A program made the translations under genes and the position numbers. Below are positions 12,187-63,357 of a stretch of DNA of 64,000 bases, one piece after another. The notes below the pieces were generated by a model. It had not been told where the DNA came from. It worked only from the letters and a program-made list of their open reading frames with translations, and did no database searches. How positions within the stretch are numbered: position 1 is the stretch's first letter; each line of letters starts with the position of its first letter. Origin of the DNA: Anaerohalosphaeraceae bacterium (GTDB lineage: Bacteria > Planctomycetota > Phycisphaerae > Sedimentisphaerales > Anaerohalosphaeraceae); assembly GCA_050309605.1 (NCBI GenBank), contig JBNRMN010000010.1:1-64000 (forward strand). Direction: 5' to 3'.

Positions 12187-12705
12187 ATGAATGAATTTCA
12201 AAACACAGAGGAAATGACGCTTCATTGGACACAATGTCAATCTGTTGTGTCTGCTTATATTTCTTCTGCGATTCCCAATTTTGAAGACGCCAATGATGTT
12301 CTTCAAAGCGTGGCGTTGACCATTGTTCGTGCGTATGACAAATACGACAAACAATCGTCTTTCACGGCGTGGGCAATTGGCATTGCGCGCAACGAAATAC
12401 TTCACTATTATCGCAAAGTCGGGCGCGACCGGCATGTTTTCGATGATGATTTGGTTCAGCAGATTGCCCAGGTTTATCAGGAAAACGAAAACGAATTTTC
12501 CGAGCTTAAAAAAGCGCTGGAACAGTGTTTGTCAAAGCTTCAAGGACGATGGAAAGAAATCATTCAGTTACGATATTTGCGCGGTATGGATGCTCGCCGC
12601 ATTGGTCAGAGTTTCGGGATTTCTCAGAATGCGGTGTTTGCTCTGCTGCATCGGATTCGCCAGTCGCTTCGTGAGTGTATTCAGCGGACCGTGAAATATG
12701 AATAA
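12187..12705 (+). CDS. ECF sigma-70 factor (planctomycete/verrucomicrobial type), cassette 1
   Basis: DANDVLQSVAL, SFTAWAIGIARN, LEQCLSKL, LRY..G....I.....IS.NAV..LLHRIR..LRECI. Confidence 0.9.
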   Translation: MNEFQNTEEMTLHWTQCQSVVSAYISSAIPNFEDANDVLQSVALTIVRAYDKYDKQSSFTAWAIGIARNEILHYYRKVGRDRHVFDDDLVQQIAQVYQENENEFSELKKALEQCLSKLQGRWKEIIQLRYLRGMDARRIGQSFGISQNAVFALLHRIRQSLRECIQRTVKYE

Positions 12706-14398
12706 TAACGACAAGACAAGTCCGGAGCAGTTGTTTACGATTTATTTTGACGGTAGTCTTTCTCCGGGCCAGCGTCAGCAGTTGGTGGAATGGCTCAAAG
12801 CAAACAAGTCGCATATCAAACAGTTTGTTTATGCCTCTTATATCCACCGGGGAATGTACGATATTCTCTACGGTCAAGACACCCACAAAATCATCAGCCG
12901 AGGCGTTGATACGGAGGGGGTGTGTGCGGATGATTTCTGGAAAGCGTTGCTGGAGGAAGAAAAAAACGCGCCTTCGGTTGAACTTGAACAATCCGATGAA
13001 TGTAAGCCTGATGTGATTGTGCCCGACCGCAGTCAGATTCAGGTGACGCGCGGGCATATTAATCGATTTGCATGGGGCACGGCGTTTGCATCCCTGGCGG
13101 CGTTTTTTTTCCTGTTGATGTATGTCCATCTCAATCCGAGACCGGTTTCCGAGCCGGTGGCGGCGGTCAGCGATGTCATCAAAGTTCAGTCTCATGACTG
13201 GGATCCGGCCCTTCGTCCGGGGGTGCGGTTGTTGACGCGGGACGGTGTGTATCGCGTGGGGCAGGGACTTGCCAAAATTCAACTTGACAACGGGGTTCAT
13301 GCGGTGATTGAAGGTCCCGGTGAATTTGAATTGATCAGTTATGATGAAATCGCACTTCACTCCGGTCGGCTCTTCGCCTCTGTGCCGCGTCGGTCGGTGG
13401 GGTTTATCGTCAGTACCTCCAATGCCAAAGTCATTGATCTGGGGACTGAGTTCGGCGTATATGCAGACGGATACGGCGACACCGAGATCCATGTGCTGGA
13501 TGGACGAGTGTCTCTGGTCTCAGGGATGCGGGCCGACGTTCGACATTCACAGGTGGTTTCTGAATCTCAGGCGTGTCGTGTCAGGGGCGATTCCGAGACC
13601 ATTGAGCCGATTGACTTTCATCCCACCGCATTTGCTCGGGATATCAATTCAAAGACGCGGTTTATTTGGCGAGGTCAGCCGCTGGATCTGGCGGATATAG
13701 CGGGAGGGGGTAACGGATTGGGAACCGGTCGATTGAATGTATGTATTGATGTGGCCACCGGCAGGCTCAGAGAAGATATACCGCGAGCTCGCATTCAGTT
13801 GGAAAAGCCCTATGTGGCGACGGAGCAGTTGCCTTTTGTGGACGGGCTTTTTATTCCGGACGGACGAAACGGGCCCATTGAGGTGACCTCCGAGGGACAT
13901 CTTTATGAGGCGCCTGCGACGCTGGGAGAAACGTATTACGGCGTCTTTAACGGCTCTGTACTGCCGCTGCGAACGGGCGACAATTATGTGGATCATCCCG
14001 TTCAGTTCAGAGGGACTATTTACGGGACTTCCGAACAGCCGGCGCTGATGCTGCATTCCAATTTGGGTGTGACGTTTGATTTACAGGCCATTCGTAAGAC
14101 GCTGCCGCCCGGAAGACGTATCACAGGTTTTTCGGCTCGCTGCGGAATCGCTGAAGGTCCGCTGCGTTCGCGGCGCGACGAGGATTACTCGGACTTTTTT
14201 GTGCTGGTCGATGGCGTGGAGCGATTTCGGGCGGTGGATATGAATTATCTGTCGGAGATGAGGCCGGTGAAAGTGGAGTTGACGGACAACGATCGGTTTT
14301 TGACGTTGATGACCACGGACGGCAGAGACGGAACCCTTCATTTGGGCTGGTCGTTCTTTGCCGAGCCGCAATTGACCGTCGGTTTGGAACACGAGTAA
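12698..14398 (+). CDS. FecR-type transmembrane anti-sigma factor with C-terminal NPCBM/NEW2-like domain, cassette 1
   Basis: Overlaps the sigma stop. One TM helix (AFASLAAFFFLLMYV), FecR motif VIDLGTEFGV and C-terminal HSNLGVTFDL...DRFLTLMTTDG. Confidence 0.85.
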   Translation: MNNNDKTSPEQLFTIYFDGSLSPGQRQQLVEWLKANKSHIKQFVYASYIHRGMYDILYGQDTHKIISRGVDTEGVCADDFWKALLEEEKNAPSVELEQSDECKPDVIVPDRSQIQVTRGHINRFAWGTAFASLAAFFFLLMYVHLNPRPVSEPVAAVSDVIKVQSHDWDPALRPGVRLLTRDGVYRVGQGLAKIQLDNGVHAVIEGPGEFELISYDEIALHSGRLFASVPRRSVGFIVSTSNAKVIDLGTEFGVYADGYGDTEIHVLDGRVSLVSGMRADVRHSQVVSESQACRVRGDSETIEPIDFHPTAFARDINSKTRFIWRGQPLDLADIAGGGNGLGTGRLNVCIDVATGRLREDIPRARIQLEKPYVATEQLPFVDGLFIPDGRNGPIEVTSEGHLYEAPATLGETYYGVFNGSVLPLRTGDNYVDHPVQFRGTIYGTSEQPALMLHSNLGVTFDLQAIRKTLPPGRRITGFSARCGIAEGPLRSRRDEDYSDFFVLVDGVERFRAVDMNYLSEMRPVKVELTDNDRFLTLMTTDGRDGTLHLGWSFFAEPQLTVGLEHE

Positions 14399-14442
14399 GC
14401 GCATGGAAGAAATTGCCTGATATTCAGCGGAGAATTGTGAAA

Positions 14443-15339
14443 ATGAAAGTTTCAAAAGGATTTACGCTGATTGAACTGCTGGTGGTGATTGCGATTATCG
14501 CGCTGCTGATGGCCATCGTGGTCCCGGGGCTGAGGGCGGCCAAGCTCAAGGCGCAGCTTGTAATTGATATGTCCAATTTGAGCGGTCTTGCCAAAGCATG
14601 GTTTATGTATTCACAGAATTTTGACGGTGAACTGATGGGAGGAAACGCGCCGGGAAACGCCGGCGGCGGTGTGGCCGGTTCGTGGACGAGGGCGCCTTAT
14701 TTTACATGGGTGGATTACCCGATATCGAAAAGCAATCCTGCGCAGTATGCCGGTGCGGATTTTGACTATCAGGAAGAGATTCTCGGTATTGAGAACGGGC
14801 TGATGTTTGACTATGTCGGAAAAGCGGAGATGTATCACTGTGCGGCGGACAAGCGCTATTTGAGTCCCCCGGCGCGATCCGGGGCCGCCTCTTTGCACGG
14901 GGGATATCGGTCTTATTCGATGACCGGCGGCGCACGAGGCGGCACGTGGAATGCGACGCTGGGTCGATACGCGGCGACAGGAGCCAATTTTCAATATGTG
15001 GCGGTAACCACGTTCTCACAGATCAAATCTCCCGGCAACAAATACATTTTCGTGGAAGAAAATGACGGACGCGGTCTGAATGCCGGCCCCTGGGATCAGG
15101 ATATGCGGCAGTTGACTCAGCCCAGCTCAACGTGGCGTTGGGTGGATGTGCCGGCGGTTTGGCATATGGGACGCAGCAGTTTCGGATTTGCCGACGGTCA
15201 TGCGGACGCTCACAAATGGAACGATCCCGACTTGATTCCGGCGGCCGAGGAGGGTGTGCAGTATGTCCCCGTCAGTCCGGCCGGGGTGGAGGATTTTGCC
15301 TTTATTTTGCACGGTTTTCCTTTTTTGGAATTGCCGTGA
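14443..15339 (+). CDS. prepilin-type N-terminal cleavage/methylation protein with H-X9-DG motif (DUF1559-like), cassette 1
   Basis: [26 protein letters not shown] and H-MGRSSFGFA-DG. GGAG RBS before ATG 14443. Confidence 0.9.
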   Translation: MKVSKGFTLIELLVVIAIIALLMAIVVPGLRAAKLKAQLVIDMSNLSGLAKAWFMYSQNFDGELMGGNAPGNAGGGVAGSWTRAPYFTWVDYPISKSNPAQYAGADFDYQEEILGIENGLMFDYVGKAEMYHCAADKRYLSPPARSGAASLHGGYRSYSMTGGARGGTWNATLGRYAATGANFQYVAVTTFSQIKSPGNKYIFVEENDGRGLNAGPWDQDMRQLTQPSSTWRWVDVPAVWHMGRSSFGFADGHADAHKWNDPDLIPAAEEGVQYVPVSPAGVEDFAFILHGFPFLELP

Positions 15340-15610: not shown

Positions 15611-17713
15611 ATGAGAAAGATGAGATTGATTTTTATGGTCATTGCGACGGCACTGATAGGCATCGGTGCATTATCGCCCGTCCGTGCGGAGTTGGTGGCG
15701 CACTATCCCTTTGACGACGGGACCGCAACGGATATCTCCGGCAACGCCAATCACGGTGTCCTTGTCGGGAATGTGGCTATGTCGCCCGATCCCGAACGCG
15801 GAAATGTGATGTATTTCCCCGGCGGAAACGGCAACTATATTCGCGTGCCGGCGAGTCCCAGTTTGAACGCCGTTGCGGCATCTTATACCTTGGCGGTGTG
15901 GCTGAATCGTCCTGCCGACACCATGGGGCAGTTCATTGAAAAAGGCGGAACCGGCCGCAGCGCGTGGTATGAGCCGCCGTGGGGCGTCCGTCTGGAGAGC
16001 GACGGTCTGCTGCGTTTGAACTGGGGCAATACTCCCTGGTACACGAATTCGGCGATTCCTCTTAATACCTGGACTCACGTGGCAATAGTCTTTGACGCTT
16101 CTCTTCCGTCGAACCAGCGAAAGGTGTACATTGACGGCGTGCTGGATGCAGAAAGTGACTGGGCTGCCGCAAGTACGAACACCTATGATCTGTTCATTGG
16201 TACGGACTGGTATAGCGGTGTTTCGCGATGGGGTCTCAATGCGTATCTGAGTGATCTTCAAATTTTCAGTACAGCCCTGTCCGAGTCCGATATTATCAAC
16301 GTGATGACTGGGACGGGAGTAACGGATATTGACCCGCCCAACGGTGCGATTCGTGTGCCGGTGGATCAGGTTCTTTCGTGGAATCCTCCAGAAATAGAGG
16401 ATCCGAATTTTGTGATAACGGGGTATGATGTTTATTTTGATCCGAATCAGGTCAAAGTGGCCGATGGCGATATTACGGTGAAAGTCGCAACCCATCAACC
16501 TGAAACCACGTATGATCCCGGATTACTGGACTATGTCAGAACCTATTACTGGCGTGTGGATGTGGTCGGCCAATACGATAATCTGCCCGATCCGAATATC
16601 TTTCCCGGGGCGGTTTTTTCCTTTACGACAATGTCCTTGTCGCCGGAAATTATCGGTCAGCCGGTCGATCAGGTGCGCGGCCCGGCCAACGGCAAGCCGG
16701 ACGCCGTTCTGGCGGTCGAAGCGCTGAATGCGACCCATTATCAATGGTATAAAGACGACGCACCGATAGCCGGTTCCACGGATCCGACGCTGACGATTGC
16801 CGGCGTTCAGCCGGGCGACGAGGGGCAATACTATTGCGTCGTGTCCAATATCGACAGCCCCGATGAAATTCAATCAAATACGGTCTGGGTCGAATATGCC
16901 CGCCTGACCAGTCAGTGGGATTTCGAACAAACCCTGACGGATGCGATTGGCGACTATGACGGCATCTATTACGATCCGAACGAGTCGCCGGGCGTCTTTG
17001 CGACCGACAGCCGGTCGGGCAATTATGCGGTTCAGTTCGGCGGCGAAGACGATTGGGTTGAGCTGCCGGTGACGGCCTTGCCCAAAGCCGGCACCGAGAT
17101 GACGTTTGCCTTCTGGGCCAAGAACTTCACGCCGTCGGTGGGGACGGTGACGTTGTACGCCAGTGCGGACGCCGCACCGGGTGACCGTCTGATCAACATC
17201 CATACCCCCTGGAGCAACAACAATGCTTATCTGGATGTCTCCAACCCCGATGCGGGCGGAAGTTATGATCGGGTATCCGCCGGCGGTGCGGTAAACGGGG
17301 CAGTCGAGCCTTACTGGATTCACTGGGTCTTTACCAAAGACGCGGAAACCGGTGTGATGCGAATTTACCGAAACGGTCAGCGGGTCGGCCAGTCAACCGG
17401 TCAGACGCGACGCTACTCTGGCGCCGACCGATTCTTCCTCGGTGCCAATCGCAATGCCGACGAGCAGTTCGGTCAGTTCTTCAATGGGCTGATTGACGAC
17501 CTGAGGATTTACAACTATGCTCTGGGTGAGGTTGAAACGGCGTATTTGTATTATGATATGGCCGGCGAAAAAGTATGTGTTGACCCGGCCGATCCTGTAT
17601 TGGCCCTCTACGACTTTAACGGCAACTGTAAGATCGATCTGGGTGATATTGCCGAACTGGCCTCCCATTGGCTGACTTGCCAGCGGGTTCCGGATTGTAT
17701 TGAACGTCCCTGA
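15611..17713 (+). CDS. secreted LamG - FN3-like - Ig - LamG - dockerin-like protein
   Basis: Signal peptide, WTHVAIVFD...YIDG, YYWRVD, YQWYKD...DEGQYYC, FNGLIDDLRIYNYAL and C-terminal DFNGNCKIDLGDIAELASHWL. Confidence 0.85.
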   Translation: MRKMRLIFMVIATALIGIGALSPVRAELVAHYPFDDGTATDISGNANHGVLVGNVAMSPDPERGNVMYFPGGNGNYIRVPASPSLNAVAASYTLAVWLNRPADTMGQFIEKGGTGRSAWYEPPWGVRLESDGLLRLNWGNTPWYTNSAIPLNTWTHVAIVFDASLPSNQRKVYIDGVLDAESDWAAASTNTYDLFIGTDWYSGVSRWGLNAYLSDLQIFSTALSESDIINVMTGTGVTDIDPPNGAIRVPVDQVLSWNPPEIEDPNFVITGYDVYFDPNQVKVADGDITVKVATHQPETTYDPGLLDYVRTYYWRVDVVGQYDNLPDPNIFPGAVFSFTTMSLSPEIIGQPVDQVRGPANGKPDAVLAVEALNATHYQWYKDDAPIAGSTDPTLTIAGVQPGDEGQYYCVVSNIDSPDEIQSNTVWVEYARLTSQWDFEQTLTDAIGDYDGIYYDPNESPGVFATDSRSGNYAVQFGGEDDWVELPVTALPKAGTEMTFAFWAKNFTPSVGTVTLYASADAAPGDRLINIHTPWSNNNAYLDVSNPDAGGSYDRVSAGGAVNGAVEPYWIHWVFTKDAETGVMRIYRNGQRVGQSTGQTRRYSGADRFFLGANRNADEQFGQFFNGLIDDLRIYNYALGEVETAYLYYDMAGEKVCVDPADPVLALYDFNGNCKIDLGDIAELASHWLTCQRVPDCIERP

Positions 17714-17772: not shown

Positions 17773-19998
17773 ATGATGAAACGAGTAACAGGTCATATGT
17801 GGATCCTGCTGACGGTTCTGGTGATGGGAATCGCCGCCGTACAGGCGGACCTTTCTTTTGTCGATGATTTTGAGAATCGTACCGGCCACATCCACAATAC
17901 GCCGACCGCCGGCGGAGACGGCACGTGGAGTACGAACAATGGGACAACCGGCAATGTGGTGCTTGAAACGAACAGCGGCAGTACGGTGGTGCGTTTTATG
18001 ACCACCACCGCCGGAGACGGTCGCGGCGTCGGGTTTGCCGACATCGACAATCCGGTTGAGAACACCGAGAAAGGGATTCTGTTCTTCCGATTCTCGGTGC
18101 GTTCTGAAAGCAACGCAGCAGATACGTATCTGGGAATCCACGCGATGTCCGGCACAACACCGTTTGGCTCCAGCCAGCGGGCCAATCCGCAGGATTATAT
18201 TGTCGCTGGGTTCCGCCTTGTCAACGGCGAGGGCAGTCTGGTCAATCTGGTGAACACAAGGGACTCCGATTCCGTCTTTTTGTCCGGGTTGTCCCGAGGG
18301 CAGTGGTATAATTGCTGGATTGAAGCGGATAATGTGGCCGATACGTTTAATCTGTTTATCAGCGAAGCGGACGGCCCGGCCGGACCGGCAACCCTTCCGA
18401 CGCCCGCCGACAAAGTTGGCGATACCGTTCCCTTCGGCGTGGCGACGGATGATCCGCTGACCGGTGCGTTTTTCGGCACACCCAGTATTGGATCAACTGA
18501 CAGATCAACCCAGCAGTCGGCACGTGTGTTCATTGACGAGGTGTATTGGGACGGCGACAGGGGACTCAGTTCGCTGGTTGCGCAGAATCCCAATCCGGGC
18601 AACAATGCCGCTGGTGTGGCGCCGGAAGCGATCCTGTCGTGGGAAGCGCCGGACGATGAAAGCATCGGGCAGATACTGTGGTATGATGTGTATATGGATC
18701 CCAATGAGACAAAAGTGGCGACGGCGGATCCGGCCGCTTTACGAAGCGCTGCTCAGACCGAAACCGCTTATGATCCGGTGCCGGATATGCTGTTTGACAG
18801 CCGGTACTTCTGGCGGGTGGATACGACGGTTATTTTTGCGGCCGATCCCAATCAGGATATGGTAATCTCCGAAGGCGCTGTCTGGTCGTTTACCACCAAG
18901 ACGCCCGCCCCCGAAATTGTCGGCCAGCCTGAGGATGTGCTTGTCGGGCCGGGAGAAACGGCGGTCTTTGTGGTGGATGTCAGCAGCCCTTATGCGACGG
19001 CATCCTATCAATGGTATGCGTCAACCGACCGCGCCAACAATACGCCGGCCGATGATGTGCTGCTTGCCGGGGCAACATCGGAGACGCTGACGCTTTTGGA
19101 CGTGTCAGCGGCTGACGAACGGTTTTATTACTGCGAAGTTTCCAATGTGTATAACGGGACGACCTATACGGTCTATTCCGATGCGGCGGCGCTGGGCGTC
19201 AAGCGCAAAGTCGCCCACTGGACGCTCGATGAACTCGTGAACGGACAGTACGCCGACAGCAGCGGTGAAGGCCGTCATGCCGATCCGAACGGCGTACCGG
19301 CCTTTATTCCCGGCGTCAATCCGGATTTGACCGGCAACGGTGTTGTCGTTGATCCGGACAATGGCTGGGCACATGCCGGCACGTGGGATCCATCGCTGTT
19401 TTCCGGTCAGTTGACGATTTCGATGTGGGTCAAATGGGCCGGTCAGACCACCCCGTTCAGTTATCAGGGGTTGATCGGCAAGCGAAATGTCTATAGCAGC
19501 GATATGCGGTGGCAGTTGGAAATCGCAAACAACGCAGCCAGTCTGCTGACCTTCAAGAGCAATATCAACGGCATTACCGGACCGATTTTGCCGGTTGATG
19601 AATGGGAGCAGGTCGTTGTGACGTATGACGGGGGCACCGCGACGATGTACCGCAATGGGACGCCGGTGGTCAGCGGGCCGGTCACGCTTAACGACGGCTT
19701 TGCAGCCAATATGATGCTTGGTGCGGTCGGCTGGGATCCGACATCGCCGACGCCGACGTCGATTCTCAACGGTGCGCTGGATGACATTCAGCTTTTCAAC
19801 TATGCCCTCGATCCGGTAACGGTGGCCTATTCTTATACGGACATCTCCGGCGAAACGGCTTGTGTGAATCCGGATGATCCGGTTTTGCTCCGGTATGACC
19901 TGGACGGCGATTGTCAGGTCGGGTTGGGCGATCTGGTGATGTTGATAGAGCACTGGCTGGCCGGACAACTGGTGCCGGATGTTATTGATCGTCCGTAG
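17773..19998 (+). CDS. secreted protein: unknown N-terminal jelly-roll-like domain - FN3-like - Ig - LamG - dockerin-like
   Basis: Signal peptide, YFWRVD, YQWY...DERFYYC, LNGALDDIQLFNYAL and DLDGDCQVGLGDL..LIEHWL. Confidence 0.85.
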   Translation: MMKRVTGHMWILLTVLVMGIAAVQADLSFVDDFENRTGHIHNTPTAGGDGTWSTNNGTTGNVVLETNSGSTVVRFMTTTAGDGRGVGFADIDNPVENTEKGILFFRFSVRSESNAADTYLGIHAMSGTTPFGSSQRANPQDYIVAGFRLVNGEGSLVNLVNTRDSDSVFLSGLSRGQWYNCWIEADNVADTFNLFISEADGPAGPATLPTPADKVGDTVPFGVATDDPLTGAFFGTPSIGSTDRSTQQSARVFIDEVYWDGDRGLSSLVAQNPNPGNNAAGVAPEAILSWEAPDDESIGQILWYDVYMDPNETKVATADPAALRSAAQTETAYDPVPDMLFDSRYFWRVDTTVIFAADPNQDMVISEGAVWSFTTKTPAPEIVGQPEDVLVGPGETAVFVVDVSSPYATASYQWYASTDRANNTPADDVLLAGATSETLTLLDVSAADERFYYCEVSNVYNGTTYTVYSDAAALGVKRKVAHWTLDELVNGQYADSSGEGRHADPNGVPAFIPGVNPDLTGNGVVVDPDNGWAHAGTWDPSLFSGQLTISMWVKWAGQTTPFSYQGLIGKRNVYSSDMRWQLEIANNAASLLTFKSNINGITGPILPVDEWEQVVVTYDGGTATMYRNGTPVVSGPVTLNDGFAANMMLGAVGWDPTSPTPTSILNGALDDIQLFNYALDPVTVAYSYTDISGETACVNPDDPVLLRYDLDGDCQVGLGDLVMLIEHWLAGQLVPDVIDRP

Positions 19999-46318: not shown

Positions 46319-46352
46319 TAATGATCCTGTCATTGAAAGAAAGAACAAAGTG

Positions 46353-54900: not shown

Positions 54901-55648
54901 TGTCCCAATGGGCGTCATCAAAGGATACCGTGTGCCAGCCAGCCGGCAAATCAGCCGCCCCGGCGGGAACCCGGTAACGACAGAATGCGCCGCTCGTAAC
55001 GAGGGTATCGCTGTGTCCGGTAATCGGAACGCCGTAAGACATATCTGTAAACTGTTCGGGGAATTCGGGTTTGTACTCATGGACAATCGTCTTTCCGTCC
55101 GGTTTGACCAGTGCCAAATATTCCCCTTCTTTATCAAGTGCAAAATTGGTATGAAGCGGCCCGGACGGGTCCCGCCGATCTTTGCCGGAGGCCAGAACAA
55201 CCATGACATCCCCGGCGTCGATGCTTATGCTTGGAAACATCCACTTTGTCAGATTGCCCGCTTTGTCGGTCAAATACCAGCCGTGCAGATTCACCGGCCC
55301 GGCCGTCATATTGTACAACTCAATCCAGTCGGACGCATCGCCGTCCTCATCCTGGAGATCATTTTTGTTCGAAGCCAAAAACTCGCTGATGATCAGCCGA
55401 TTGACCTTTTTTTGCCAGTTTTCGGAAAGATGATGATAATCGTGTAAATCGACTATCCGATCTTGATTGATGTCCGCCTCAGGGCCGTCGGTAAGCCATT
55501 GTTCAGCCATCAGGGCCAAATCCGCCATATCGACTCGACAATCCTTATTCACGTCTCCGAGCGGACAAATCGCCCCACTCGTGCACCATGAAAAATGGAA
55601 CAATGTGACCATGAAACAGACATAGCCAATATGACGATAGCATTTCAT
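51938..55648 (-). CDS. CotH-kinase-family protein with N-terminal dockerin-like, lamin-tail, F5/8 and FN3-like domains
   Basis: GDVNKDCRVDMADL..WL, ISEFLASN...DEDGDASDWIELYN (LTD), LRIQGG, KHSFRL, YWGLYNLVE and WDIE. Start set at ATG 55648. Confidence 0.8.
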   Translation of the reverse strand: MKCYRHIGYVCFMVTLFHFSWCTSGAICPLGDVNKDCRVDMADLALMAEQWLTDGPEADINQDRIVDLHDYHHLSENWQKKVNRLIISEFLASNKNDLQDEDGDASDWIELYNMTAGPVNLHGWYLTDKAGNLTKWMFPSISIDAGDVMVVLASGKDRRDPSGPLHTNFALDKEGEYLALVKPDGKTIVHEYKPEFPEQFTDMSYGVPITGHSDTLVTSGAFCRYRVPAGAADLPAGWHTVSFDDAHWDSAVMGVGYDASGWGATPENLALGKPAAQSSDYSVSYPASNAVDGLLNTFSHTAGWDTNSTWQVNLGGAYYISEIVLYNRLNCCWARLRDITVSIRDPEDTTDIYVSELLNPHNILNDPTFLSVDFSSEPILGGIVRVHRTADPDDPGSNSDRNTLTLAEVDVLASASLNNTYSSLIETNVRNAMQHRNSSIFLRIPFTVATERPFDFLYLKARYDDGFAVYLNGVLAARRNAPADLVWNPSLWNAASTAENPKPQAILYETINLTPYAYLLREGRNVLAIHGLNMSADDEDFLMDVELIGVVAECGPSGYFKQPTPGQVNSPHAFPGRVEKIQFSHSRGYYDQPFDVLLSTKTQEAAIYYTIDGGRPTPEDGILYSGPVPITRTTCLRAVAVKSGYLSSDIETHTYIFPADVIHQPTLPDGFPAVWKDVSNTSYAADYEMDPRIVEHPNYSGQMVESLQSLPVISLVTDQGNLFDPSYGIYANPTQTAIPVDDGLPLWEVPASMEYFETDSDKKLQVNCGLRIQGGYFRRPSATAKHSFRLLFKREYGPGALDFPFFEYDQEAATRHNTLVLRAQGNDGYSWASMGGKAQYIRDEFGRRLQAAAGSDHGAAAAHGIFVHLYVNGLYWGLYNLVERPDAAFSAAYYGGEKREWDVFKHKNYELSEGTRDALNQMLETADYHNPRDTTILSNDAYWKLQGCNADGTRNPALAVLLDMDNFINYMLVNFWTGNQDWGWNDNNYWFGRYRLDGSTGFKFYCWDIEDILNSPRSPVTLDMIGKVYTNDRTLGRLHNRLMSNTEYRLRFGDHAHKHLFNNGVMTTDSASALYRDLADQVESAIVAESARWGDQHATTPWTQAHWRTERDYILMTYLPQRPGIVLQQLIHYGLYPSVDAPVFHINGTARHDGPIPSGAELTMESSVPGAVIWFTLDGPDPRRPGGEVCPEAMVYAGPIALTETQTVKARALSGGQWSALNEALYTVDPLSVDAW

Positions 55649-55922
55649 AATTCTTGTCTCGCAACATAGGGAACATCGCCCATCAGTCAATCGCAAATAA
55701 TGACAGCCTCTCGATATGGATTTCCCGTAAAACACTATTTCTTTCACGAACTTTTTGAAGTCAATCGTTTTTAATCCGGAACAGATGGAAAACCAGACAA
55801 TATCTTACTTAAAGAAGGAGTAAAAACTTAAGGTCGAGATATTTTGTACGGCTGCGACAGCAGGGGGGCGAAAGCCGTTTAATATCATTTTTGGAAAGCT
55901 GTTTTCAGTATTGAAAACGCAG

Positions 55923-57668
55923 TCATCTAAAGGTTAAGAAATGGACTGCATCAGGCAGCAATGGGCTATCATAATAGCTCAAATAAGGTTCATGTTGGTC
56001 GGATTTCGAAAAACGAATTTTCGAATCATAACCGGACGAACGTACGCCGGTCCCCGTGATGCGCCCTGCCGGGGGCGGGGCGTTTGAGATGTATTTGACA
56101 TGTTCTGAGTCGGAAACGGTATAGGGTCCGGCGCTGTCGTTGATCAGGGTATCCTCAAAGGTAACATTCTCGCAATATTTGACGGTACAGCCATTGCCGG
56201 CGTTGATGTGAACGTTCTTAAACACAACATCCTGAATGCGGCTTTCGGGCAGCCCGGTACACTGAATGGCGGTTCTTACTCCGCCTTCTGACCGGATGTT
56301 CTCATAACGAATATTTCTGAATACAGGCGGTCTCGGCGCCGGTGTACCATCATTATTGACACTGTAATCCATTGTCAGTCGAATGCCGAGCCGCATTCGG
56401 GACAGGGTAATATCCCGAAACACAATGTTTTCCACCGTCCCGCCGCGAACGACGTTGGATTTAATATCCAGACCTTCCCAGGAGATTCCGCTGATTGTGC
56501 AGTCGGAAACAAACACGTTTCTGACGCCGCCGGACATTTCACTTCCGATGACAATGCCCCCCATCGATCCATCAATCACATTATCGGTAATCCGGATGTC
56601 CGTTGATGGTCTGCCAACCTCATATCCAATCAGGTTTTTACCCGATTTTACGGCGATGGAATCGTCTCCCGTTTTGAAATAATTATCGAAAATATAGACA
56701 TGGCTGGACGAATCAATGCCGATGCCGTCTCCGTTCCTGATCCGGTATTCCGGATTTCGGGAGATGACTTTTAACTGGCTGAATGTCAGCTTTTTGCTGT
56801 AAATCGCGTGGTTGGTCCAGCCCGGTCCATAACTGAGGGTCAGTCCATGGACATAGACATCTTCTGTGTTGATTAAGTGAATCAAACGTCCGCGAGATCG
56901 AATGCCCGCTTCACGTGCCTGAGCGCGGTCCAAAACACCCCCTGACCCATCAATGGTTCCCTGTCCGATAATTTTTATGTTGAATACATTGGGCGGGCCG
57001 TGGGTATCACGCTGGCCGGCATTTAACAGGCTTGCAAAACACATCAAGTCCCATCCTTCAAAACGCGATTCAATAAAGGGTTTATAGTCGTCCAGATTGG
57101 TCGTGCCCTTGAGTGTGCCTCCCTCAGCGACGTTAAGCGTCATATTGCTTTTCAGAAACAACGCTCCGCTCAAAAAAGTGCCTTTCGGGATCAATACCGT
57201 TCCCCCTTCGGTGCAGGCGTCGATTGCCTTTTGGATGGCTTGGGTATTGACGGTTTCCCCGTCGCCGACAGCACCGTATCGGGTAATATCGAATATCTCC
57301 CCCTTCGGTTCAGTTGTGACCTGTAGCGCATGACTCGCGGCAGAAAGTACGCCGCTTGTGTCTTTTGATTTTACTGTAAACGTATAGGAAGTGTCGGGTT
57401 CAAGCCCTGTCACATTGAAGCCGCCTTTGGTTGTTTCACCAATCAGCTTGCCATCCTGATAGATACAGTAACTGGAAAAGGATGCTTGAACCCAATTGTC
57501 CGGCTTGTCCCAGAGCAGCAGAATCATTGAATCCGTCACGGCCGCCGGCGGAGACATTAGGTTTTGAGGGGGAACAAGAGTGTCTGCATTGAGATTGCCC
57601 GCAATGACAGAACCAAGGATGGTTCCCGTTACTGCCAGTATGAGTAATGACGATTGTCTTTTCAGCAT
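55923..57668 (-). CDS. GH28 polygalacturonase-family protein with N-terminal FN3 domain
   Basis: YGAVGDG...NT.AIQKAID.C, GALFLKS, NGDG, TGDDSIAVKSG and IGSEMSGG. ATG 57668 after AAAGGA. Confidence 0.85.
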   Translation of the reverse strand: MLKRQSSLLILAVTGTILGSVIAGNLNADTLVPPQNLMSPPAAVTDSMILLLWDKPDNWVQASFSSYCIYQDGKLIGETTKGGFNVTGLEPDTSYTFTVKSKDTSGVLSAASHALQVTTEPKGEIFDITRYGAVGDGETVNTQAIQKAIDACTEGGTVLIPKGTFLSGALFLKSNMTLNVAEGGTLKGTTNLDDYKPFIESRFEGWDLMCFASLLNAGQRDTHGPPNVFNIKIIGQGTIDGSGGVLDRAQAREAGIRSRGRLIHLINTEDVYVHGLTLSYGPGWTNHAIYSKKLTFSQLKVISRNPEYRIRNGDGIGIDSSSHVYIFDNYFKTGDDSIAVKSGKNLIGYEVGRPSTDIRITDNVIDGSMGGIVIGSEMSGGVRNVFVSDCTISGISWEGLDIKSNVVRGGTVENIVFRDITLSRMRLGIRLTMDYSVNNDGTPAPRPPVFRNIRYENIRSEGGVRTAIQCTGLPESRIQDVVFKNVHINAGNGCTVKYCENVTFEDTLINDSAGPYTVSDSEHVKYISNAPPPAGRITGTGVRSSGYDSKIRFSKSDQHEPYLSYYDSPLLPDAVHFLTFR

Positions 57669-57708
57669 TGTAATCATCCTTTCCAAACAGTGTCGGTTTA
57701 TTATTGAC

Positions 57709-57736
57709 TGTTCGCATAAAACGGGAATTTCTTTCA
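57709..57736 (-). promoter_or_regulatory. candidate ECF promoter TGAAAGA-N15-CGAACA
   Basis: Recurrent motif ~40 nt upstream of the GH28 start. Confidence 0.55.
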
Positions 57737-57993
57737 ATAATTTTGAAGTTCGAATTAGTTTTTGACTCGCCCACGTCACAACAGGTGGATCGTCCGGACT
57801 TTTGCTTTCGGCTGAACGGCATCGGACGGCGTGCGGATACTGATTGTCTTAGATGAGGTGCGGTTTTATCTACATTAGTGTGTCCTTGGGTTTCTTGTGC
57901 CTGTTTCTCCAATATCAGAGGACATTATTGATGCCAAGAATCTGAACATTTTTCCTTCGGCTCACAAAAAAAGCGTGCAATTTCAGGAAATCC

Positions 57994-58060: not shown

Positions 58061-58597
58061 TTGGATAATCAAGAGAACACGAAATCATTGACCCTGAACT
58101 GGACCTCGGCACAGCCGACGGTCCTGGCGTATATCTCATCCATGGTGCCTAATTTTCAGGATGCTGAGGATATCCTGCAAACCGTTGCGTTGACCATTGC
58201 GGAAAAGTACGATACGTTTGACCCGTCTTGTTCCTTTCTTTCGTGGGCGCTGGGCATTGCACAAAATAAAATTTATGATTATTTCCGAAAACAGTCGAAA
58301 CAGCGTAAAATTAAAATACTGGACACCCACACCGTAGCTCAAATCGCCGAGATTTTTGAAAAAGAAAGCTCTCATCTTAACGAGATGCGCTACGCATTGG
58401 AATTTTGTCTTGGCAAACTGTCAGGGCATTGGCGGCAGATTCTTGAATTGCGGTACATTCGGGAGTTGAGCACCCAGCGCATCGCCCAGCAGTTAGGGAT
58501 GTCCAAAAACGCAATTTTCATCACCCTCCATCGTGTCCGCATAGCCTTGCAGGAGTGCATTCAAAAACGATTGTCCGCGGAGCGAAATCCTCTATGA
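58061..58597 (+). CDS. ECF sigma-70 factor, cassette 3 (close paralogue of cassette 1 sigma)
   Basis: TTG start after GGAG. TL.WT..Q..V.AYISS..PNF.DA.D.LQ.VALTI is shared with 12187. Confidence 0.9.
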   Translation: MDNQENTKSLTLNWTSAQPTVLAYISSMVPNFQDAEDILQTVALTIAEKYDTFDPSCSFLSWALGIAQNKIYDYFRKQSKQRKIKILDTHTVAQIAEIFEKESSHLNEMRYALEFCLGKLSGHWRQILELRYIRELSTQRIAQQLGMSKNAIFITLHRVRIALQECIQKRLSAERNPL

Positions 58598-60339
58598 GAT
58601 ACGATCCGGAAATTCTGTTAAGTCTTTACCTGAACGACAACGAAGAAATGACAGACGAACAGTTTGAATGCCTTCGGTCATGGATTAACGCATCCGAGGC
58701 GCATGCTCTTCAATTTGTTCGCGCCTCTTATATGCATCGATTGGTTCATGACCATATGACGGGAAATGATTTGCAGAAGCGCTTTATGATGCCTGTCGAG
58801 CAGCAGGATGCAGAGTATCGACGCAAAGACGGGTATTGTGAAGCAGCATTTTGGGACGCCCTCTCACAGCACGAAAAAGTTGCCGAAACGCTGGTGCTGC
58901 CGAATGAGTCGTCTGAACAGCAGAAAGAATTGATTTCCGATGTTCGCCGGCGCAAAGCCATGCTGAAAACCGGACAAAAAAAAATCCCTTTCAGTCTATG
59001 GCTGTCGCTGGGTTCTTTGGCGGCCTTGTTTATGATGGTGGCGTATGTCATGCTCAATCCCCGCGTTGCCGAGCCGATCGCAACACTGACAGACAGCCAT
59101 CAGGCCCAATGGCAGTGGAAGTCGCTGGAAATCGGCGCGCGATTGACCAACGCACAGTATCCGATATCGCTGCTTTCCGGCTATGCAAAATTGCAGTTTG
59201 ATAACGGGGCGGATGTCATTCTTGAAGGTCCCGTCGAATTTCAGCTTGTCAGCGCCGAACAAATGCGTGTTTCCCACGGTAAACTGACAGCCGTCGTTCC
59301 TCCCTCGGCGTCCGGCTTTCGTGTGGATGCTCCGGAGATGAGCATCATTGACTTGGGGACCGAATTTTCGGTCGGCATCGACCGGAACGGCTTTTCGGCG
59401 GTCCACTTGTACGAGGGCAGCGCTTCGCTCCAGGTCGGCGAGGTCGGCAATCGCAAAACCAGCCATTTACTAACCGCCGGACAAGCTCGACGAGTGGAGG
59501 CCGCCACTGGACGGATTGAGGTGATTCCGCTGGAGCAGAACACATTTGTCCGACGTCTTGATTCTGAAAAACAGTTTCTCTGGCGGGGTGAATCGGTTGA
59601 TCTGGCCGCGATTGTGGCAGGAGGAGACGGGTTCAGCCCGGTCCGCGGAATCGCCGGCATTAATCCCAAAACCGGTCAGCCGGTTACGGGATACAGGTTT
59701 ACAGTTCACTATTCGACGGCGACGTACCGCCCTGTTCCCGACAATCCCTTTGTGGACGGCGTGTTTATTCCGGACGGCGGGCTGGGGGAGACGATCATTT
59801 CCTCAGCCGGTCATATTTTTAAGGATTGCCCCGATACCGCCGGCAGAAGTGACAATCCCGTCGGAGCGACCAGTCACGATATTTTGACTTTTTGCGATTA
59901 TGATGAGGATGTGATTCCCGAAGCGCGGCGAAATAAAATGGCCGTCTTCAATGGAGTTGCCAGGGGGACCGTCGAGGAGCCGGCGGTTTTGATGCACAGC
60001 AATGTAGGGATTACGTTTGATTTGCAAGCCATACGAAGCCGGCTGTCGGGAGCCGAAATCAGCCAGTTTGACTGCTTCATTGGGTTGCCGGGAAGTTTGA
60101 GAGGTGCAACGTCCCGGTCGGATGTGTGGGTATTGATAGATGGACAGCTCAGATACAGTAAACACGAATTGATGCCCGAAGCCGGGTTGCTGGACATAAC
60201 GATGGATCTGGCCGCTTCAGATCGGTTCCTGACGATTGCCGTGACAGATGCCGCCCACACCTATGAGCCGGGCGAAGGAACATATGCCGATGATTATGTC
60301 TATCTGGTCAATCCGAAACTGGTCTTAAAGGGGCGTTAA
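58594..60339 (+). CDS. FecR-type anti-sigma factor with NPCBM/NEW2-like C-terminus, cassette 3
   Basis: ATGA overlap with the sigma gene. TM helix, IIDLGTEF, HSNVGITFDL and DRFLTIAVTD. Confidence 0.85.
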   Translation: MRYDPEILLSLYLNDNEEMTDEQFECLRSWINASEAHALQFVRASYMHRLVHDHMTGNDLQKRFMMPVEQQDAEYRRKDGYCEAAFWDALSQHEKVAETLVLPNESSEQQKELISDVRRRKAMLKTGQKKIPFSLWLSLGSLAALFMMVAYVMLNPRVAEPIATLTDSHQAQWQWKSLEIGARLTNAQYPISLLSGYAKLQFDNGADVILEGPVEFQLVSAEQMRVSHGKLTAVVPPSASGFRVDAPEMSIIDLGTEFSVGIDRNGFSAVHLYEGSASLQVGEVGNRKTSHLLTAGQARRVEAATGRIEVIPLEQNTFVRRLDSEKQFLWRGESVDLAAIVAGGDGFSPVRGIAGINPKTGQPVTGYRFTVHYSTATYRPVPDNPFVDGVFIPDGGLGETIISSAGHIFKDCPDTAGRSDNPVGATSHDILTFCDYDEDVIPEARRNKMAVFNGVARGTVEEPAVLMHSNVGITFDLQAIRSRLSGAEISQFDCFIGLPGSLRGATSRSDVWVLIDGQLRYSKHELMPEAGLLDITMDLAASDRFLTIAVTDAAHTYEPGEGTYADDYVYLVNPKLVLKGR

Positions 60340-60404: not shown

Positions 60405-62432
60405 ATGAAAAAGTTGTTGGTGTTAAGTATGATGTGGGCAGCGTGCTTATCTGCTGTCTCTGCGGCGGTGATTGTTAATGTCGAGCGTACCAACGGGTAT
60501 GGGCCGGACAATCGAGCTCCAATCGGCGCGTATGAACCGGACACGCCGCCGCTGCCGTGGCCGGAAGGGGGTCTGCAGACCGGAGTCAGCAGAGCGTTAA
60601 CCCCTTATGTGTATTCAGATCGGACGTTTTGGTGGAACAACGTACCCGACGAGATGGTCGGTTGGGAACACGTTCGTACCTTTAATAATGACAAAGAGCC
60701 GGAAGCAGCCGATGTGAAGTACACGGTGACGACATCTAAAGCCGCTGCCATTTGGATTGCGTTTGAAAGTCGTCTTGCCACCAGTACAGATTACTGGCGT
60801 CCGCTCGAGGAGCCCATCACTCCGTGGGGGCAAAACGCTCCTGAGTCGCCTCAGGTTTTAGTGGATTGGCTGACGCGCCATGTAGGCCCGCCCGGCACAT
60901 TTACTGATACGGGTATGACCGTAAACGTTCAAGAGGGCGATCCCGGTACGACACGGACGTTTTTAGTCTATTCTGCGCAACTTCCTGCCGGTTCGTATGA
61001 GTTTACCTGGCAAGCCAATCGAAACATAAGTAATTACATCATAGGGTCCGCTCCTCCGCCGAGCAAGGCCTGGGGTCCGAATCCGTATGACGGCGAGGAG
61101 CTGGTGGAAATTGAAAGGGTACTGTCCTGGGAAGCTCCGGAAGATCCGAACCTGACGATCTACGGCTATGATCTCTATCTGGATCCCAACGAAACCAAAG
61201 TCACAGCCGGCGACCCGACGGTTTTGAAGGCCGAAGGCTTGACGGAAACCAGCTACCCAGCCGATTTGCTGTATGACACGCAGTTCTTCTGGAGAGTGGA
61301 TGTCGCGGGTTTGTATGACGATGACCCGAATCAGATGACGGTGGTCAACCAGGGACCGGTCTGGCGTTTCTCGACGGCCCCCGAGGCGCCTGTGATCGTG
61401 ACCCAGCCGGTCGGACAGTCGCGCGGCCCCGCTGCCGGCAGACCGGACGCCCTGCTCGCGGTTGAAGCCACCAATGCGACCGATTATCAGTGGTATAAGG
61501 ACGGCGTCGAGATTCCGGGGGCCACCGAAGCGACCCTGTCGATTCCCGGCGTTACGCTCGAAGACGAAGGATTGTATTACTGCGTTGCGTCCAATGCCAT
61601 CGATGCGGTGGTGTCGGATGAGGTGTGGCTGGAGTATGCCCGTCTGACCAGTCATTGGACCTTTGATGACACGTATGGGGATGCCGTTGGCGGATATGAC
61701 ATCATACCGGCCGCTGAACCGAACGCTCCGACGTTTGCAGAGGGCAAAATCGGTAATGCCCTTGCACTTGACGGGATCAGCCAGTTTGCACGTATTCCGG
61801 CTGAAGCGCTGCCGAAGAATCAGCACGCTTTGACGATTGCGTTCTGGGCCAGAAATGATATCGGTACGGCCTCTGCAACGACGGCCTTTTACGCCAATAC
61901 GATTGAAGAACCGGGCAATCGCCTGATCAGTGCGCAGATTCCGTTTACCAATGGCAATGCTCAGTTTGATCTCGGCAATGCCGACAGCGGAGGAGGCTAT
62001 GATCGTGCCAGTGCCTCTATGCGGCCCGCGGACGATTGGGTATTCTGGGTAATTTCCAAAGATGTCGAAACCGGCGCTATGACGGTCTATCAGAACGGTT
62101 CTGAACTGGGTCGGAATGCCAATGCACAACGGCTGTTTTACGGCGTTGAAGAGTTCTTCGTCGGTGCCAGGAATTTTGATGACGGACTGGGACAGTTTTT
62201 CGGCGGAGCGATAGACGATCTGAAAATCTACAACTATGCCCTGGATCCGGTCGAAATCGCCTATCAGTATCATGACGTAACCGGCGATCCGGTATGTGTC
62301 AATCCGGACGATCCGGTCCTTCAGCAGTTTGATTACGACGGCAATTGTATCGTGGACATTGGCGATCTGGCGGTCTTTGCATCGAATTGGCTCTCCTGCC
62401 AGAGAGTGCCCGACTGTTTTGAGCGTCCGTGA
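60405..62432 (+). CDS. secreted protein: unknown N-terminal domain - FN3-like - Ig - LamG - dockerin-like, cassette 3
   Basis: GGAGG RBS and signal peptide. The C-terminal two-thirds is collinear with 15611 (RGPA.G.PDA.LAVEA.NAT.YQWYKD; EYARLTS). Confidence 0.85.
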   Translation: MKKLLVLSMMWAACLSAVSAAVIVNVERTNGYGPDNRAPIGAYEPDTPPLPWPEGGLQTGVSRALTPYVYSDRTFWWNNVPDEMVGWEHVRTFNNDKEPEAADVKYTVTTSKAAAIWIAFESRLATSTDYWRPLEEPITPWGQNAPESPQVLVDWLTRHVGPPGTFTDTGMTVNVQEGDPGTTRTFLVYSAQLPAGSYEFTWQANRNISNYIIGSAPPPSKAWGPNPYDGEELVEIERVLSWEAPEDPNLTIYGYDLYLDPNETKVTAGDPTVLKAEGLTETSYPADLLYDTQFFWRVDVAGLYDDDPNQMTVVNQGPVWRFSTAPEAPVIVTQPVGQSRGPAAGRPDALLAVEATNATDYQWYKDGVEIPGATEATLSIPGVTLEDEGLYYCVASNAIDAVVSDEVWLEYARLTSHWTFDDTYGDAVGGYDIIPAAEPNAPTFAEGKIGNALALDGISQFARIPAEALPKNQHALTIAFWARNDIGTASATTAFYANTIEEPGNRLISAQIPFTNGNAQFDLGNADSGGGYDRASASMRPADDWVFWVISKDVETGAMTVYQNGSELGRNANAQRLFYGVEEFFVGARNFDDGLGQFFGGAIDDLKIYNYALDPVEIAYQYHDVTGDPVCVNPDDPVLQQFDYDGNCIVDIGDLAVFASNWLSCQRVPDCFERP

Positions 62433-62568
62433 TTAAATTGTATAGAGTGTTGAAATTGTCAATCGTACTGATCCGGGGTCCGCTCGGCGGACTCCGGATA
62501 TATGTCTATAATGTAAAAGCGGCGCCAATGACGGCCGTCGATCAAAATGACCATAATGGAGAATACGT

Positions 62569-63357
62569 ATGAAACAGACAGGATTGTGCAAGAAAGGATT
62601 TACGCTGATCGAATTACTGGTGGTCATTGCCATTATCGCACTGCTGATGTCGATCGTAACCCCGGCAATGCGAAAGGCCAAAGAGTATGCCCGAAAGATC
62701 ATGTGTCAGTCCAACTACAAACAGTTGGGCCTTGCACTCGGCTCGTACGAGGCTCACACAGGTTATAATTTCCGAAATTACAATTCCGCCGCTGATGTAG
62801 ATGACTTGTCGCGCCACTGGTTCTGGTATAACGGTACCGGCGACTATGCTCACGAAGCGTCGCCCTACGCCATCCGGCATTTGCGAAATTCCGGCGTGCT
62901 GCCTTCCTCTGAGGTTCTGTTTTGTCCGGGCGTCAGGAACCTGTCGTTTGATCAAAACTATCCGGCCAGCAAAGTGGTTGCGGGGGATTATGCGCCTCAG
63001 AACACAGATAATATCTATGCAAGCGTGGAAAACGGCGCGTTGCCTTCAAACGACAGACCGTTGTTTTGGAGTACTCATACATGGATTTGGAAAAAAGAGA
63101 TTCGGGGAGATGTCGTCTCGGTCAATAATATGTCTTCCGGTGCGATGATGTGCGATATGACCGAAGGCAGTTGGCAATTCGCTGCGGAGACCAATTCTAC
63201 ATTTCGAAATTTCTTTAATGCCGTCGGCGTTTCCCGGATGTTTCAGCACTGCAATGTTTTAATGAACGATATGAGTGTCAAGAATCCGACCGATAAGGAT
63301 GAAGAATTGGTTCAATGGCTGTGGAATTCAGATCGCTGGGCCGGATCGGGATATTAA
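62569..63357 (+). CDS. prepilin-type N-terminal cleavage/methylation protein, cassette 3
   Basis: [34 protein letters not shown] and LFCP. The C-terminal motif is degenerate (NVLMNDMS). Confidence 0.88.

Follow-up and report, generated by a model that had tools for sequence, protein, structure and literature searches.

The first 64,000 nucleotides (forward strand) of contig JBNRMN010000010.1 from an Anaerohalosphaeraceae bacterium, hereafter the window, carry three cassettes in which genes for an extracytoplasmic function (ECF) sigma factor, a single-pass anti-sigma factor, secreted LamG 'stalk' proteins and a large orphan pilin lie side by side. Our data show that sigma factor, anti-sigma factor and stalk protein form the constant core of a recurring unit, with a stalk gene within three genes of the anti-sigma gene in 51/55 related loci, that the stalk head is a cassette-specific, exchangeable module, and that the pilin is an optional, not a fixed, partner of the LamG protein. 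We favour the interpretation that this unit provides control and capture at the head of a TonB-independent polysaccharide utilisation locus (PUL) with an accessory pilin, and assign it a probability of about 0.55.

Three cassettes, their regulators and their genomic setting

The layout of the window was derived from a list of its open reading frames (ORFs) and a Pfam scan of 34 window proteins. A first-pass annotation, made from the sequence, had described the four gene types as adjacent and co-oriented three times over, and all 14 genes were recovered at the positions, on the strands and in the order it had assigned:

12187..12705 (+), cassette 1 ECF sigma factor, TIGR02989 type
12698..14398 (+), cassette 1 anti-sigma factor: cytoplasmic anti-sigma domain, transmembrane residues 124-145, FecR, NPCBM-like sensor with insertion
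14443..15339 (+), cassette 1 large orphan pilin with class III signal and H-X9-DG; a related strain lacks window 14487-15409
15611..17713 (+), stalk protein 1a: signal peptide, LamG head, Fn3-like, Ig, LamG, dockerin-like tail
15746..16274 (+), exchangeable head of stalk 1a
17773..19998 (+), stalk protein 1b: head type unlike that of 1a, weak GH131_N-like match
20069..22267 (+), stalk protein 1c: its head and that of 1b share 49% identity
22373..36976 (+), run of co-oriented enzyme genes following cassette 1: F5/8-fn3-dockerin-like protein, GH97, chondroitinase-B-like-LamG-dockerin protein, GH95, GH2-alginate-lyase fusion
37922..46348 (-), run of co-oriented enzyme genes following cassette 2: GH27-ThuA, melibiase-like, GH95-like, GH29-like
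46353..47147 (-), cassette 2 large orphan pilin with H-X9-DG
47267..49426 (-), stalk protein 2, LamG head (head at 48758-49357)
49560..51236 (-), cassette 2 anti-sigma factor: one transmembrane helix, NPCBM-like sensor
51245..51805 (-), cassette 2 ECF sigma factor
51938..57779 (-), CotH-kinase/lamin-tail-domain (LTD)/dockerin protein and GH28, between cassettes 2 and 3
58061..58597 (+), cassette 3 ECF sigma factor
58594..60339 (+), cassette 3 anti-sigma factor: one transmembrane helix, FecR
60405..62432 (+), stalk protein 3, head without Pfam family
62569..63357 (+), cassette 3 large orphan pilin: weak DUF1559 match, no H-X9-DG

The paralogous cassette proteins of the window share 30-49% identity and are thus old, so the cassettes are neither a recent triplication nor a misassembly. 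An assembly artefact at cassette 1 was ruled out separately, as a contig from another study (X4) spans 11812-16104, that is from sigma 1 to stalk 1a including the pilin.

All three sigma factors score above the TIGR02989 cut-off (150.3, 141.0 and 139.6 bits versus 124.55). The anti-sigma factors have one transmembrane helix each (3/3), align with one another at 33-37% and gave Pfam matches above cut-off to FecR in 2/3 and to NPCBM in 2/3 cases. Their sensor domain lies at 0.91 to NPCBM clusters by Atlas features, and no FecR C-terminal STN-like family was found among the Pfam matches, the C-terminus being NPCBM-like instead. Searching PDB sequences with the anti-sigma profile returned only the RsiW anti-sigma domain (E 0.026). 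The genome of this organism (G000; 99.73% complete) encodes 22 such sigma factors and 22 anti-sigma factors, the sensors of which are NPCBM-like in 19 cases, LamG in two and another repeat domain in one. Swapped or extended sensors are present in the anti-sigma factors at C6:1212-3470, C33:21783-23498, C53:23426-25177 and C82:37658-39376 (one insertion of ~190 aa, two LamG domains, one repeat-type domain).

For comparison, we used the best-scoring 80 of 579 related loci, which stem from about 30 genomes and are not independent; 25 of the 80 were dropped for having <6 kb of downstream sequence, leaving 55 that were counted with genes called de novo. The ECF gene lies directly 5' of the anti-sigma gene in 75/76 related loci; this figure and the 51/55 loci with a nearby stalk gene far exceed what chance would produce. 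Among the best 80 anti-sigma relatives, 41 are labelled Sedimentisphaerales/Anaerohalosphaeraceae, and the others Phycisphaerae, Phycisphaerales, Planctomycetota, Planctomycetaceae or Pirellulales.

A genome-wide count proposed beforehand bore out the prediction that the unit is enriched beside carbohydrate-active enzymes (CAZymes): glycan hydrolases, lyases or sulfatases occur within about -3/+11 kb of 14/22 units as compared to 1/14 control windows (Fisher p=0.0013). A conservative count, with the three window units entered as one and PF06439 included among the CAZymes, gave 12/20 versus 2/14 (p=0.013). For this comparison, 13/21 upstream ORFs were scanned and control ORFs were those of at least 200 aa (110/111 scanned), both sets at E<=1e-18; one random control window overlapped a type II secretion system (T2SS) locus that had already been scanned and was replaced by a hand-picked one. 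The earlier statement that the cassettes run into CAZymes holds for cassette 1 (GH97, polysaccharide lyase, GH95, GH2) and cassette 2 (GH27, GH95, GH29-like). Cassette 3 is followed by a 605-aa secreted protein (window 63503 onward; L026:1504-3321) with a weak polysaccharide-lyase match (E 2.7e-7) and no Pfam, NCBIfam or PDB sequence match, which makes it a candidate for a new glycan-active family; a GH28 gene lies divergently upstream of this cassette.

Several neighbouring genes deserve separate mention. The GH2 enzyme at 33308-36976 carries a C-terminal alginate-lyase-family domain as a fusion, and 36790-37892 holds the remnant of a GH29 fucosidase, in which ~107 N-terminal codons are followed by the C-terminal beta-domain in another frame, most of the catalytic domain being gone. 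Five large secreted proteins combine CotH-kinase and lamin-tail domains (window 51938-55747; C10:67712-72935, C89:43319-49345, C33:25855-30069 and C87:3542-7930 elsewhere in the genome); 4/5 adjoin sigma/anti-sigma cassettes and 1/5 lies in a pilin locus. The contig starts with a PASTA-repeat ORF (165-905), a CARDB protein whose dockerin-like motif is internal (1039-4863) and a DUF3466-like protein (4970-6886).

With regard to transport, neither a TonB-dependent transporter (TBDT) nor SusD, ATP-binding cassette (ABC) or major facilitator superfamily (MFS) genes were found among the 34 window ORFs, in agreement with the first-pass annotation, or among the three ORFs up to the right end of the contig, the window beginning at its first base. 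A SusC-type TBDT was likewise lacking among 82 downstream ORFs of the other units. Indeed, the description of the cassettes as SusCD-free extends to the whole genome: it encodes two TBDTs (648 and 658 aa), which do not lie beside CAZymes and on neither of which an STN domain was matched (E<=1e-7), and SusD (PF07980) gave no match, the positive control Bacteroides thetaiotaomicron being matched. The ABC sugar-binding family PF01547 had no match above cut-off, and a search for BBP2 porins was uninformative, as it matched neither this genome nor the controls. Present are one OprB porin and 11 genes of sodium-solute symporters (SSF), so that a conventional entry route is available; for 6/11 SSF genes, a large pilin is no more than 13 kb away (background 18%, p=0.007). 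A shared pilus or T2SS machine had been proposed to be encoded elsewhere, and the genome does hold seven secretins, with secretin loci that include two full T2SS gene sets, three sets resembling type IV pili (T4P) and a PilT-like ATPase. At C92:40826-46500 (L111:7719-13517), a small TonB-dependent receptor gene lies directly 3' of two tandem secretin genes that have no recognised N-domains and no other T2SS genes beside them.

Among 41 genomes of the family, TBDT matches number 0-9 and are missing in 13, family counts per genome being based on the 9-11 best-scoring candidates in each. One genome (G027) has no TBDT match yet at least 11 anti-sigma matches. Because TBDT matches are few or none in these genomes, the regulator must be able to work without cognate TonB transducers.

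Exchangeable heads, dockerin-like tails and an optional pilin

The five LamG proteins of the window were aligned and follow one plan, namely a signal peptide, a variable head of 200-250 residues, conserved Fn3-like, Ig and LamG domains and a single dockerin-like repeat. Their earlier designation as LamG-Ig-dockerin proteins was right as to Laminin_G_3 and Ig, which were matched in Pfam. The tail is one C-terminal dockerin-like EF-hand repeat, as seen in the alignment and with our own hidden Markov model; Pfam Dockerin_1 was not matched in any of the five at E<=0.001 and matched just two other window proteins. The genome contains 52 stalk-type genes. An Fn3-type stalk follows within four genes of the anti-sigma gene in 14/22 units, and six further units appear from their sequence to carry a LamG-PKD or truncated variant; the two exceptions are located near contig ends. 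In the 43 related loci with 6 kb on both sides, followers downstream versus upstream numbered 54 versus 17 for stalks, 16 versus 1 for PEP-CTERM proteins and 7 versus 7 for pilins. A complete genome (G099) showed nine stalks, five pilins and four PEP-CTERM proteins in 11 loci, and 16 loci of two others (G106/G113) showed nine, four and two, respectively.

PEP-CTERM proteins occur in 20/55 related loci, often as a small gene inserted after the anti-sigma gene. The body of the PEP-CTERM protein is a copy of the adjacent stalk head: 16/22 match the neighbouring head at E<=1e-8, 11 of them as top match among 90 heads, while shuffling gave a mean of 2.1 and a maximum of 8 in 5000 trials. Such shared heads were seen within this genome on C15, C52, C53 (twice), C64 and C87, and the stalk 3 head shares 65% identity with a PEP-CTERM protein of contig C60. 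As for the sorting system itself, the PEP-TM-basic tail pattern matched 37 times (about 36 of these being credible), TIGR02595 hit 2/2 proteins tested, and two exosortases were found; none of the genome's PEP-CTERM proteins falls within the window cassettes.

Altogether, 127 heads fell into 44 similarity groups, the recognised types being LamG or CBM96. Direct evidence for exchange comes from a locus 94% identical to cassette 1 (L027), in which stalk 1a bears the head of window stalk 2 in place of its own (92.7% to 48758-49357), the crossover lying in a short similar stretch where both heads begin. Contigs of sequencing run X15 have 527 bases of the stalk 1a head swapped for 533 others at the same place. 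In a structure model of stalk 1a, the head is of low confidence, and the constant LamG domain matches domain 4 of AbnA, the structure of which contains arabino-oligosaccharide (Z 22.1, rmsd 2.9, 197 residues aligned), as well as CBM40s and PilC of Streptococcus sanguinis (Z 12.9). Toxin entries in the fold lists were dropped as a functional link, since they share the LamG fold only, at 11-15% identity.

Outside Sedimentisphaerales, a stalk was found in 0/13 loci; LamG- or CBM96-PEP-CTERM proteins are present there instead, and the pilin follows the anti-sigma gene within four genes in 7/13 loci of other Phycisphaerae families. In these other Phycisphaerae, the unit consists of sigma/anti-sigma pair, PEP-CTERM head and pilin. 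In another class, DUF1549/1553 together with DUF1501 is the other common follower of the anti-sigma gene. In a different family of the order, one genome (G008, loci L201-L208) has a single multi-domain protein of 1000-2000 aa after the anti-sigma gene and no stalk or pilin; two of these followers carry galactose-oxidase-like/kelch domains.

The dockerin-like motif is present in 85 proteins of this genome, at the C-terminus in 69. The duplicated EF-hand that defines a dockerin was not observed in 81/85, which have one copy. Cohesin (PF00963) had no match here and matches in 2/61 genomes of the order, whose cohesins match nothing in this genome, although a divergent partner is possible; a cellulosome was rejected for lack of cohesins. 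The tail matches weakly the NCBI family 'GC-type dockerin domain-anchored protein', in which such tails are treated as anchors. The tripeptide DPN is among the two most over-represented in the proteome (3-fold), and [DE]PN reaches 2.35 per 1000 aa in tailed proteins as compared to 0.11 in PEP-CTERM proteins and 0.34 in others; in relatives it stands at 3.6 in stalks versus 0.18 in their anti-sigma factors. It is a candidate modification or sorting motif.

The pilins were earlier described as H-X9-DG prepilins. All three window pilins carry the class III (GFxxxE) signal/N_methyl motif, two of them (at 14443 and 46353, not at 62569) the H-X9-DG pattern; PF07596 is above cut-off in the third alone, and TIGR04294 was not matched in any at E<=0.001. 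A homologue maps to N_methyl/SBP_bac_10 clusters, and the three window pilins can be aligned over the first 50-66 residues only. The genome has 32 pilin-motif genes of >200 aa; large orphan pilins number 29, most of them in glycan loci. A stalk gene lies within three genes of 15/32 pilins (background 4.4%), which together with the phylum-wide link of pilins to this sigma/anti-sigma type upholds the proposed association as such. Pilins without a sigma gene adjoin sulfatases, GH38, BNR proteins and SSF/MFS transporters.

As a fixed set, ECF sigma factor, anti-sigma factor, LamG protein and prepilin did not stand: the first three did, whereas a pilin is part of the co-oriented run in 7/22 units of this genome and lies within four genes in 13/55 related loci. 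With 7/22 genome-wide, the three cassettes of the window over-represent the pilin. The locus with the exchanged head (L027) jumps from window 14491 to 15410, so that the first pilin codons alone remain. The X15 contigs show the same skip of 923 bases over the pilin, with 5 bases of microhomology; X15 and L027 may be one strain. In more distant orthologous cassettes, four (L028-L031) keep stalks without a pilin and one (L032) has two pilins. The five pilin-less genomes have no pilin-1 orthologue elsewhere, their best paralogues being 38-43% identical (draft metagenome-assembled genomes). Moreover, pilin and head similarity do not co-vary (rho 0.14 in 16 cassettes with both). Pilin 3 and its counterpart in the unit on C6 share 74% identity in the globular part, yet the heads of both units are unrelated; pectin-type enzymes are present at both loci (GH28 at the former; GH88 and pectate lyases at the latter). 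This is a single hint that the pilin type follows the glycan, not the LamG neighbour.

Pilin 1 was modelled with high confidence (pLDDT 90.9) as a 50-residue helix with a loop-rich head bearing conserved Trp/Tyr/His/Asp. Foldseek gave no match at E<=0.001, and the best VIA hits were type IV pilins (Z 4.6); a new fold is not implied. Prediction of a complex between stalk 1a (27-700) and pilin 1 (30-298) scored 0.00 in two runs and, with no control folded, counts neither for nor against an interaction. Because the pilin is optional, deleted in a 94% identical strain, absent from 4/5 distant orthologous cassettes and does not co-vary with the heads, the suggestion that prepilin and LamG protein form a fixed, substrate-specific pair is not supported.

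A working model and its alternatives

We propose that the single-pass anti-sigma factor senses a periplasmic oligosaccharide through a domain that it carries itself (NPCBM-like, in some units LamG or another type), with no TonB transducer involved, and thereby frees the ECF sigma factor, as its domain composition suggests. The freed sigma factor would turn on the downstream run, for which co-orientation and short gaps argue. The first products would be secreted, non-catalytic binders whose cassette-specific heads are modular and exchangeable; the heads presumably bind glycan at the cell surface, displayed at the tip of a Fn3-Ig-LamG stalk with dockerin-like tail or directly on a PEP-CTERM anchor. 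These binders may do the work of Bacteroides surface glycan-binding proteins (SGBPs), that is keep the cell and its enzymes on the polymer. The large orphan pilin would be a third, optional and independently exchanged module, assembled by a shared T2SS/T4P machine, most likely a glycan-tuned adhesin that is co-regulated with the stalk protein without being its obligate partner. Secreted CAZymes would then cut the polymer, and the products may enter via the porin and inner-membrane sodium symporters or MFS transporters in or near sister loci.

Several observations weigh against this model. Promoter footprinting over seven orthologous cassette-1 regions and an inspection of 22 sigma upstream regions revealed no convincing common motif. 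An RNA library (run X20) yielded four short contigs of 99%+ identity over sigma 1 and stalks 1a/1b, and such contigs cannot give level or co-transcription. In 8/22 units, no recognised glycan enzyme is nearby: four are at contig edges, and the others are flanked by CotH-LTD proteins, an FAD oxidoreductase or housekeeping genes. Many heads could be assigned to no family, and proteins are among the ligands of LamG folds. Moreover, no cohesin that could anchor the stalk by its tail was found in this genome or in 59/61 genomes of the order. Porins pass only about 600 Da (PMC5394234; papers given by PMC number are cited here and below from excerpts), so that the entry of oligosaccharides for sensing is not fully explained. 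Finally, in other Phycisphaerae families (7/13), in one further genome (G056, 4/5) and in another class (7/20), the pilin is a commoner follower of the anti-sigma gene than the stalk, which points to a more central role of the pilin; the frequency varies between genomes, with 1/5 in G042 and 0/7 in G008 (loci with room).

A central role of the pilin is the essence of an alternative that we regard as possible, if unlikely, and that restates the idea of the first-pass annotation in a looser form: retractile pili, with the large pilins as their glycan-binding subunits, would pull the polymer through a secretin into the periplasm, assisted by the heads in stalk or PEP-CTERM form. The seven secretins, two T2SS and three T4P-like loci with the PilT-like ATPase would provide the machinery, the 29 large orphan pilins the subunits, and adjacency of sigma/anti-sigma pair and pilin recurs across the phylum. 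The confident model of pilin 1 with its large loop-rich head and conserved residues fits as well, and so does the report of dextran on pili-like fibres and in the periplasm of two Planctomycetia (PMC5394234). However, this head has no lectin fold match, a pilin is present in no more than 13/55 related loci and in none of the seven G008 loci with room, its density downstream of the anti-sigma gene equals that upstream, and it was deleted in a close strain and shows no co-variation with heads. In this alternative, paralogous pilins could stand in where a cassette lost its own, as the 38-43% identical paralogues retained by genomes without a pilin-1 orthologue would allow. Improbable in our judgement is a role of the pilins as substrate-selecting pseudopilins, which help the T2SS to export the stalks and dockerin-tailed enzymes of the locus and bind no glycan. 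Two complete T2SS gene sets exist, 85 dockerin-like proteins (69 C-terminal) without any cohesin fit a sorting signal, and a stalk or tailed protein lies within three genes of 20/32 pilins (background 12%); yet the tails are conserved, in contrast to the highly diverse pilins, a neighbouring pilin is lacking for most tailed genes (22/52 stalks have one), and pilins follow anti-sigma genes also in stalk-free lineages.

The position of the stalk gene, which in 48/55 loci (first gene other than pilin/PEP-CTERM) is that of a TBDT gene, raises the question whether the stalk replaces FecA/SusC as signal transducer, being periplasmic or surface-spanning, binding glycan by its head and contacting the anti-sigma factor. 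This is distinctly improbable: the anti-sigma factor has its own sensor resembling a carbohydrate-binding module (CBM) and no STN-like domain, sensor and stalk-tail similarity are hardly related (rho 0.11 in 73 cassettes), 29/52 stalk-type genes have no anti-sigma gene within three genes, and the same regulator is used by lineages that have no stalk. Least probable of all is that stalk, PEP-CTERM protein and pilin serve as general adhesins of the envelope or of biofilms, which diversifying selection, e.g. by phage, would act on and which would be induced on particles, with heads that do not select glycans. High head diversity and swapping, several units without a CAZyme neighbour and the general tie of PEP-CTERM proteins to exopolysaccharide would be in line with this scenario, as opposed to the nature of the recognised heads (LamG or CBM96), the strong link to CAZymes and sugar symporters, and the retention of one head in two formats per cassette. 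We therefore retain the control-and-capture model with an accessory pilin.

Relation to known systems and implications

The regulator resembles ECF46, a sigma factor group of the Planctomycetes-Verrucomicrobia-Chlamydiae (PVC) bacteria with, at +1, an anti-sigma factor that resembles FecR, has one transmembrane helix and is proposed to sense periplasmic carbohydrate, and for which no conserved promoter motif is reported (Casas-Pastor et al. 2021, PMC7826278). Position, single helix and FecR homology of the anti-sigma factor recur here, and the genomic context of ECF46 includes rhamnosidase and sulfatase. In contrast, ECF46 anti-sigma factors have a LamG sensor, while the sensor is NPCBM-like in the window and LamG in 2/22 paralogues; the excerpted description names no stalk, PEP-CTERM or pilin genes, and the likeness is by description, our sigma factors having been scored on TIGR02989. 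FecIRA-type signalling shares the ECF sigma factor and the single-pass FecR anti-sigma factor, whereas its TonB transducer with N-terminal signalling domain and its STN-like anti-sigma C-terminus have no counterpart here. The ECF-controlled PULs of Bacteroidota (ECF240, SusC/SusD, SGBPs) likewise have many paralogous sigma/anti-sigma pairs heading non-catalytic binders and CAZymes, and the combination of a regulator with clustered CAZymes is found here as well. However, the present loci lack SusC and SusD and hence are not Bacteroidota PULs; they have no TonB transducer, and their binders are Sec-type proteins with C-terminal tails, whereas Bacteroidota SGBPs are lipoproteins, and are joined by a pilin.

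PilA/PilC of S. sanguinis form a glycan-binding minor pilin complex and exemplify a type IV pilus that carries a ConA-like lectin. That lectin belongs to a pilin of a single locus, whereas the LamG proteins here have neither a prepilin signal nor a fixed pilin partner. Pilus-based polysaccharide capture has already been proposed for planctomycetes, with 'fishing rod' pili (PMC5394234, PMC12078418), and planctomycete N_methyl/SBP_bac_10 (DUF1559) prepilins are described as expanded, of unclear role and often flanked by signal-peptide genes (PMC8567305). The excerpts of these papers tie no pilin gene to a glycan locus or sigma factor, while here pilins are located in glycan regulons, where they were gained and lost. 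In Akkermansia, a SusCD-free PVC bacterium, the genes of the type IV-like pilus locus MUL2 are implicated in glycan attachment (PMC13174399); this is one conserved assembly locus as compared to dozens of glycan-linked orphan pilins with sigma factors here. Dockerin-like tails on many enzymes and binders, with LTD proteins nearby, are reminiscent of the cellulosome or 'planctosome' (PMC6461901, PMC11557425), from which the present system differs in its single-repeat tail and the lack of cohesins.

Papers treating CAZyme clusters, missing SusCD or dockerins (PMC11131199, PMC11266412, PMC8857213, PMC11980603, PMC6461901, PMC11557425) do not deal with this cassette in the excerpts seen, and full-text literature searches, the scope of which excluded subscription papers on these genera, found no description of it. 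Taken together, the cassettes represent a real and apparently undescribed lineage-wide variant of the PUL principle. According to one paper, functional characterisation of Planctomycetota CAZyme clusters is lacking (PMC11131199), and another calls the outer-membrane step in polysaccharide uptake by Verrucomicrobiota unknown (PMC8857213). For the question of how SusCD-free PVC bacteria capture and import polysaccharides, there is now a countable, repeated gene unit, of which natural pilin-minus and head-swapped variants exist, so that the question can be tested directly. Candidates for new CBM families can be drawn from the 44 head types, many of which belong to no family, and the neighbouring enzymes allow a guess at their ligands. 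We consider it a rather unlikely, far-reaching extension that the phylum as a whole employs a TonB-independent alternative to SusCD, in which sigma-gated cassettes would provide exchangeable, glycan-binding heads in three formats (PEP-CTERM, cohesin-independent dockerin-tailed stalk and pilin-borne) and shared secretin/pilus machines would haul the bound polysaccharide into the enlarged periplasm, specificity being reset by recombinational head swapping. If true, this would name the genes behind the 'fishing rod' uptake of planctomycetes.

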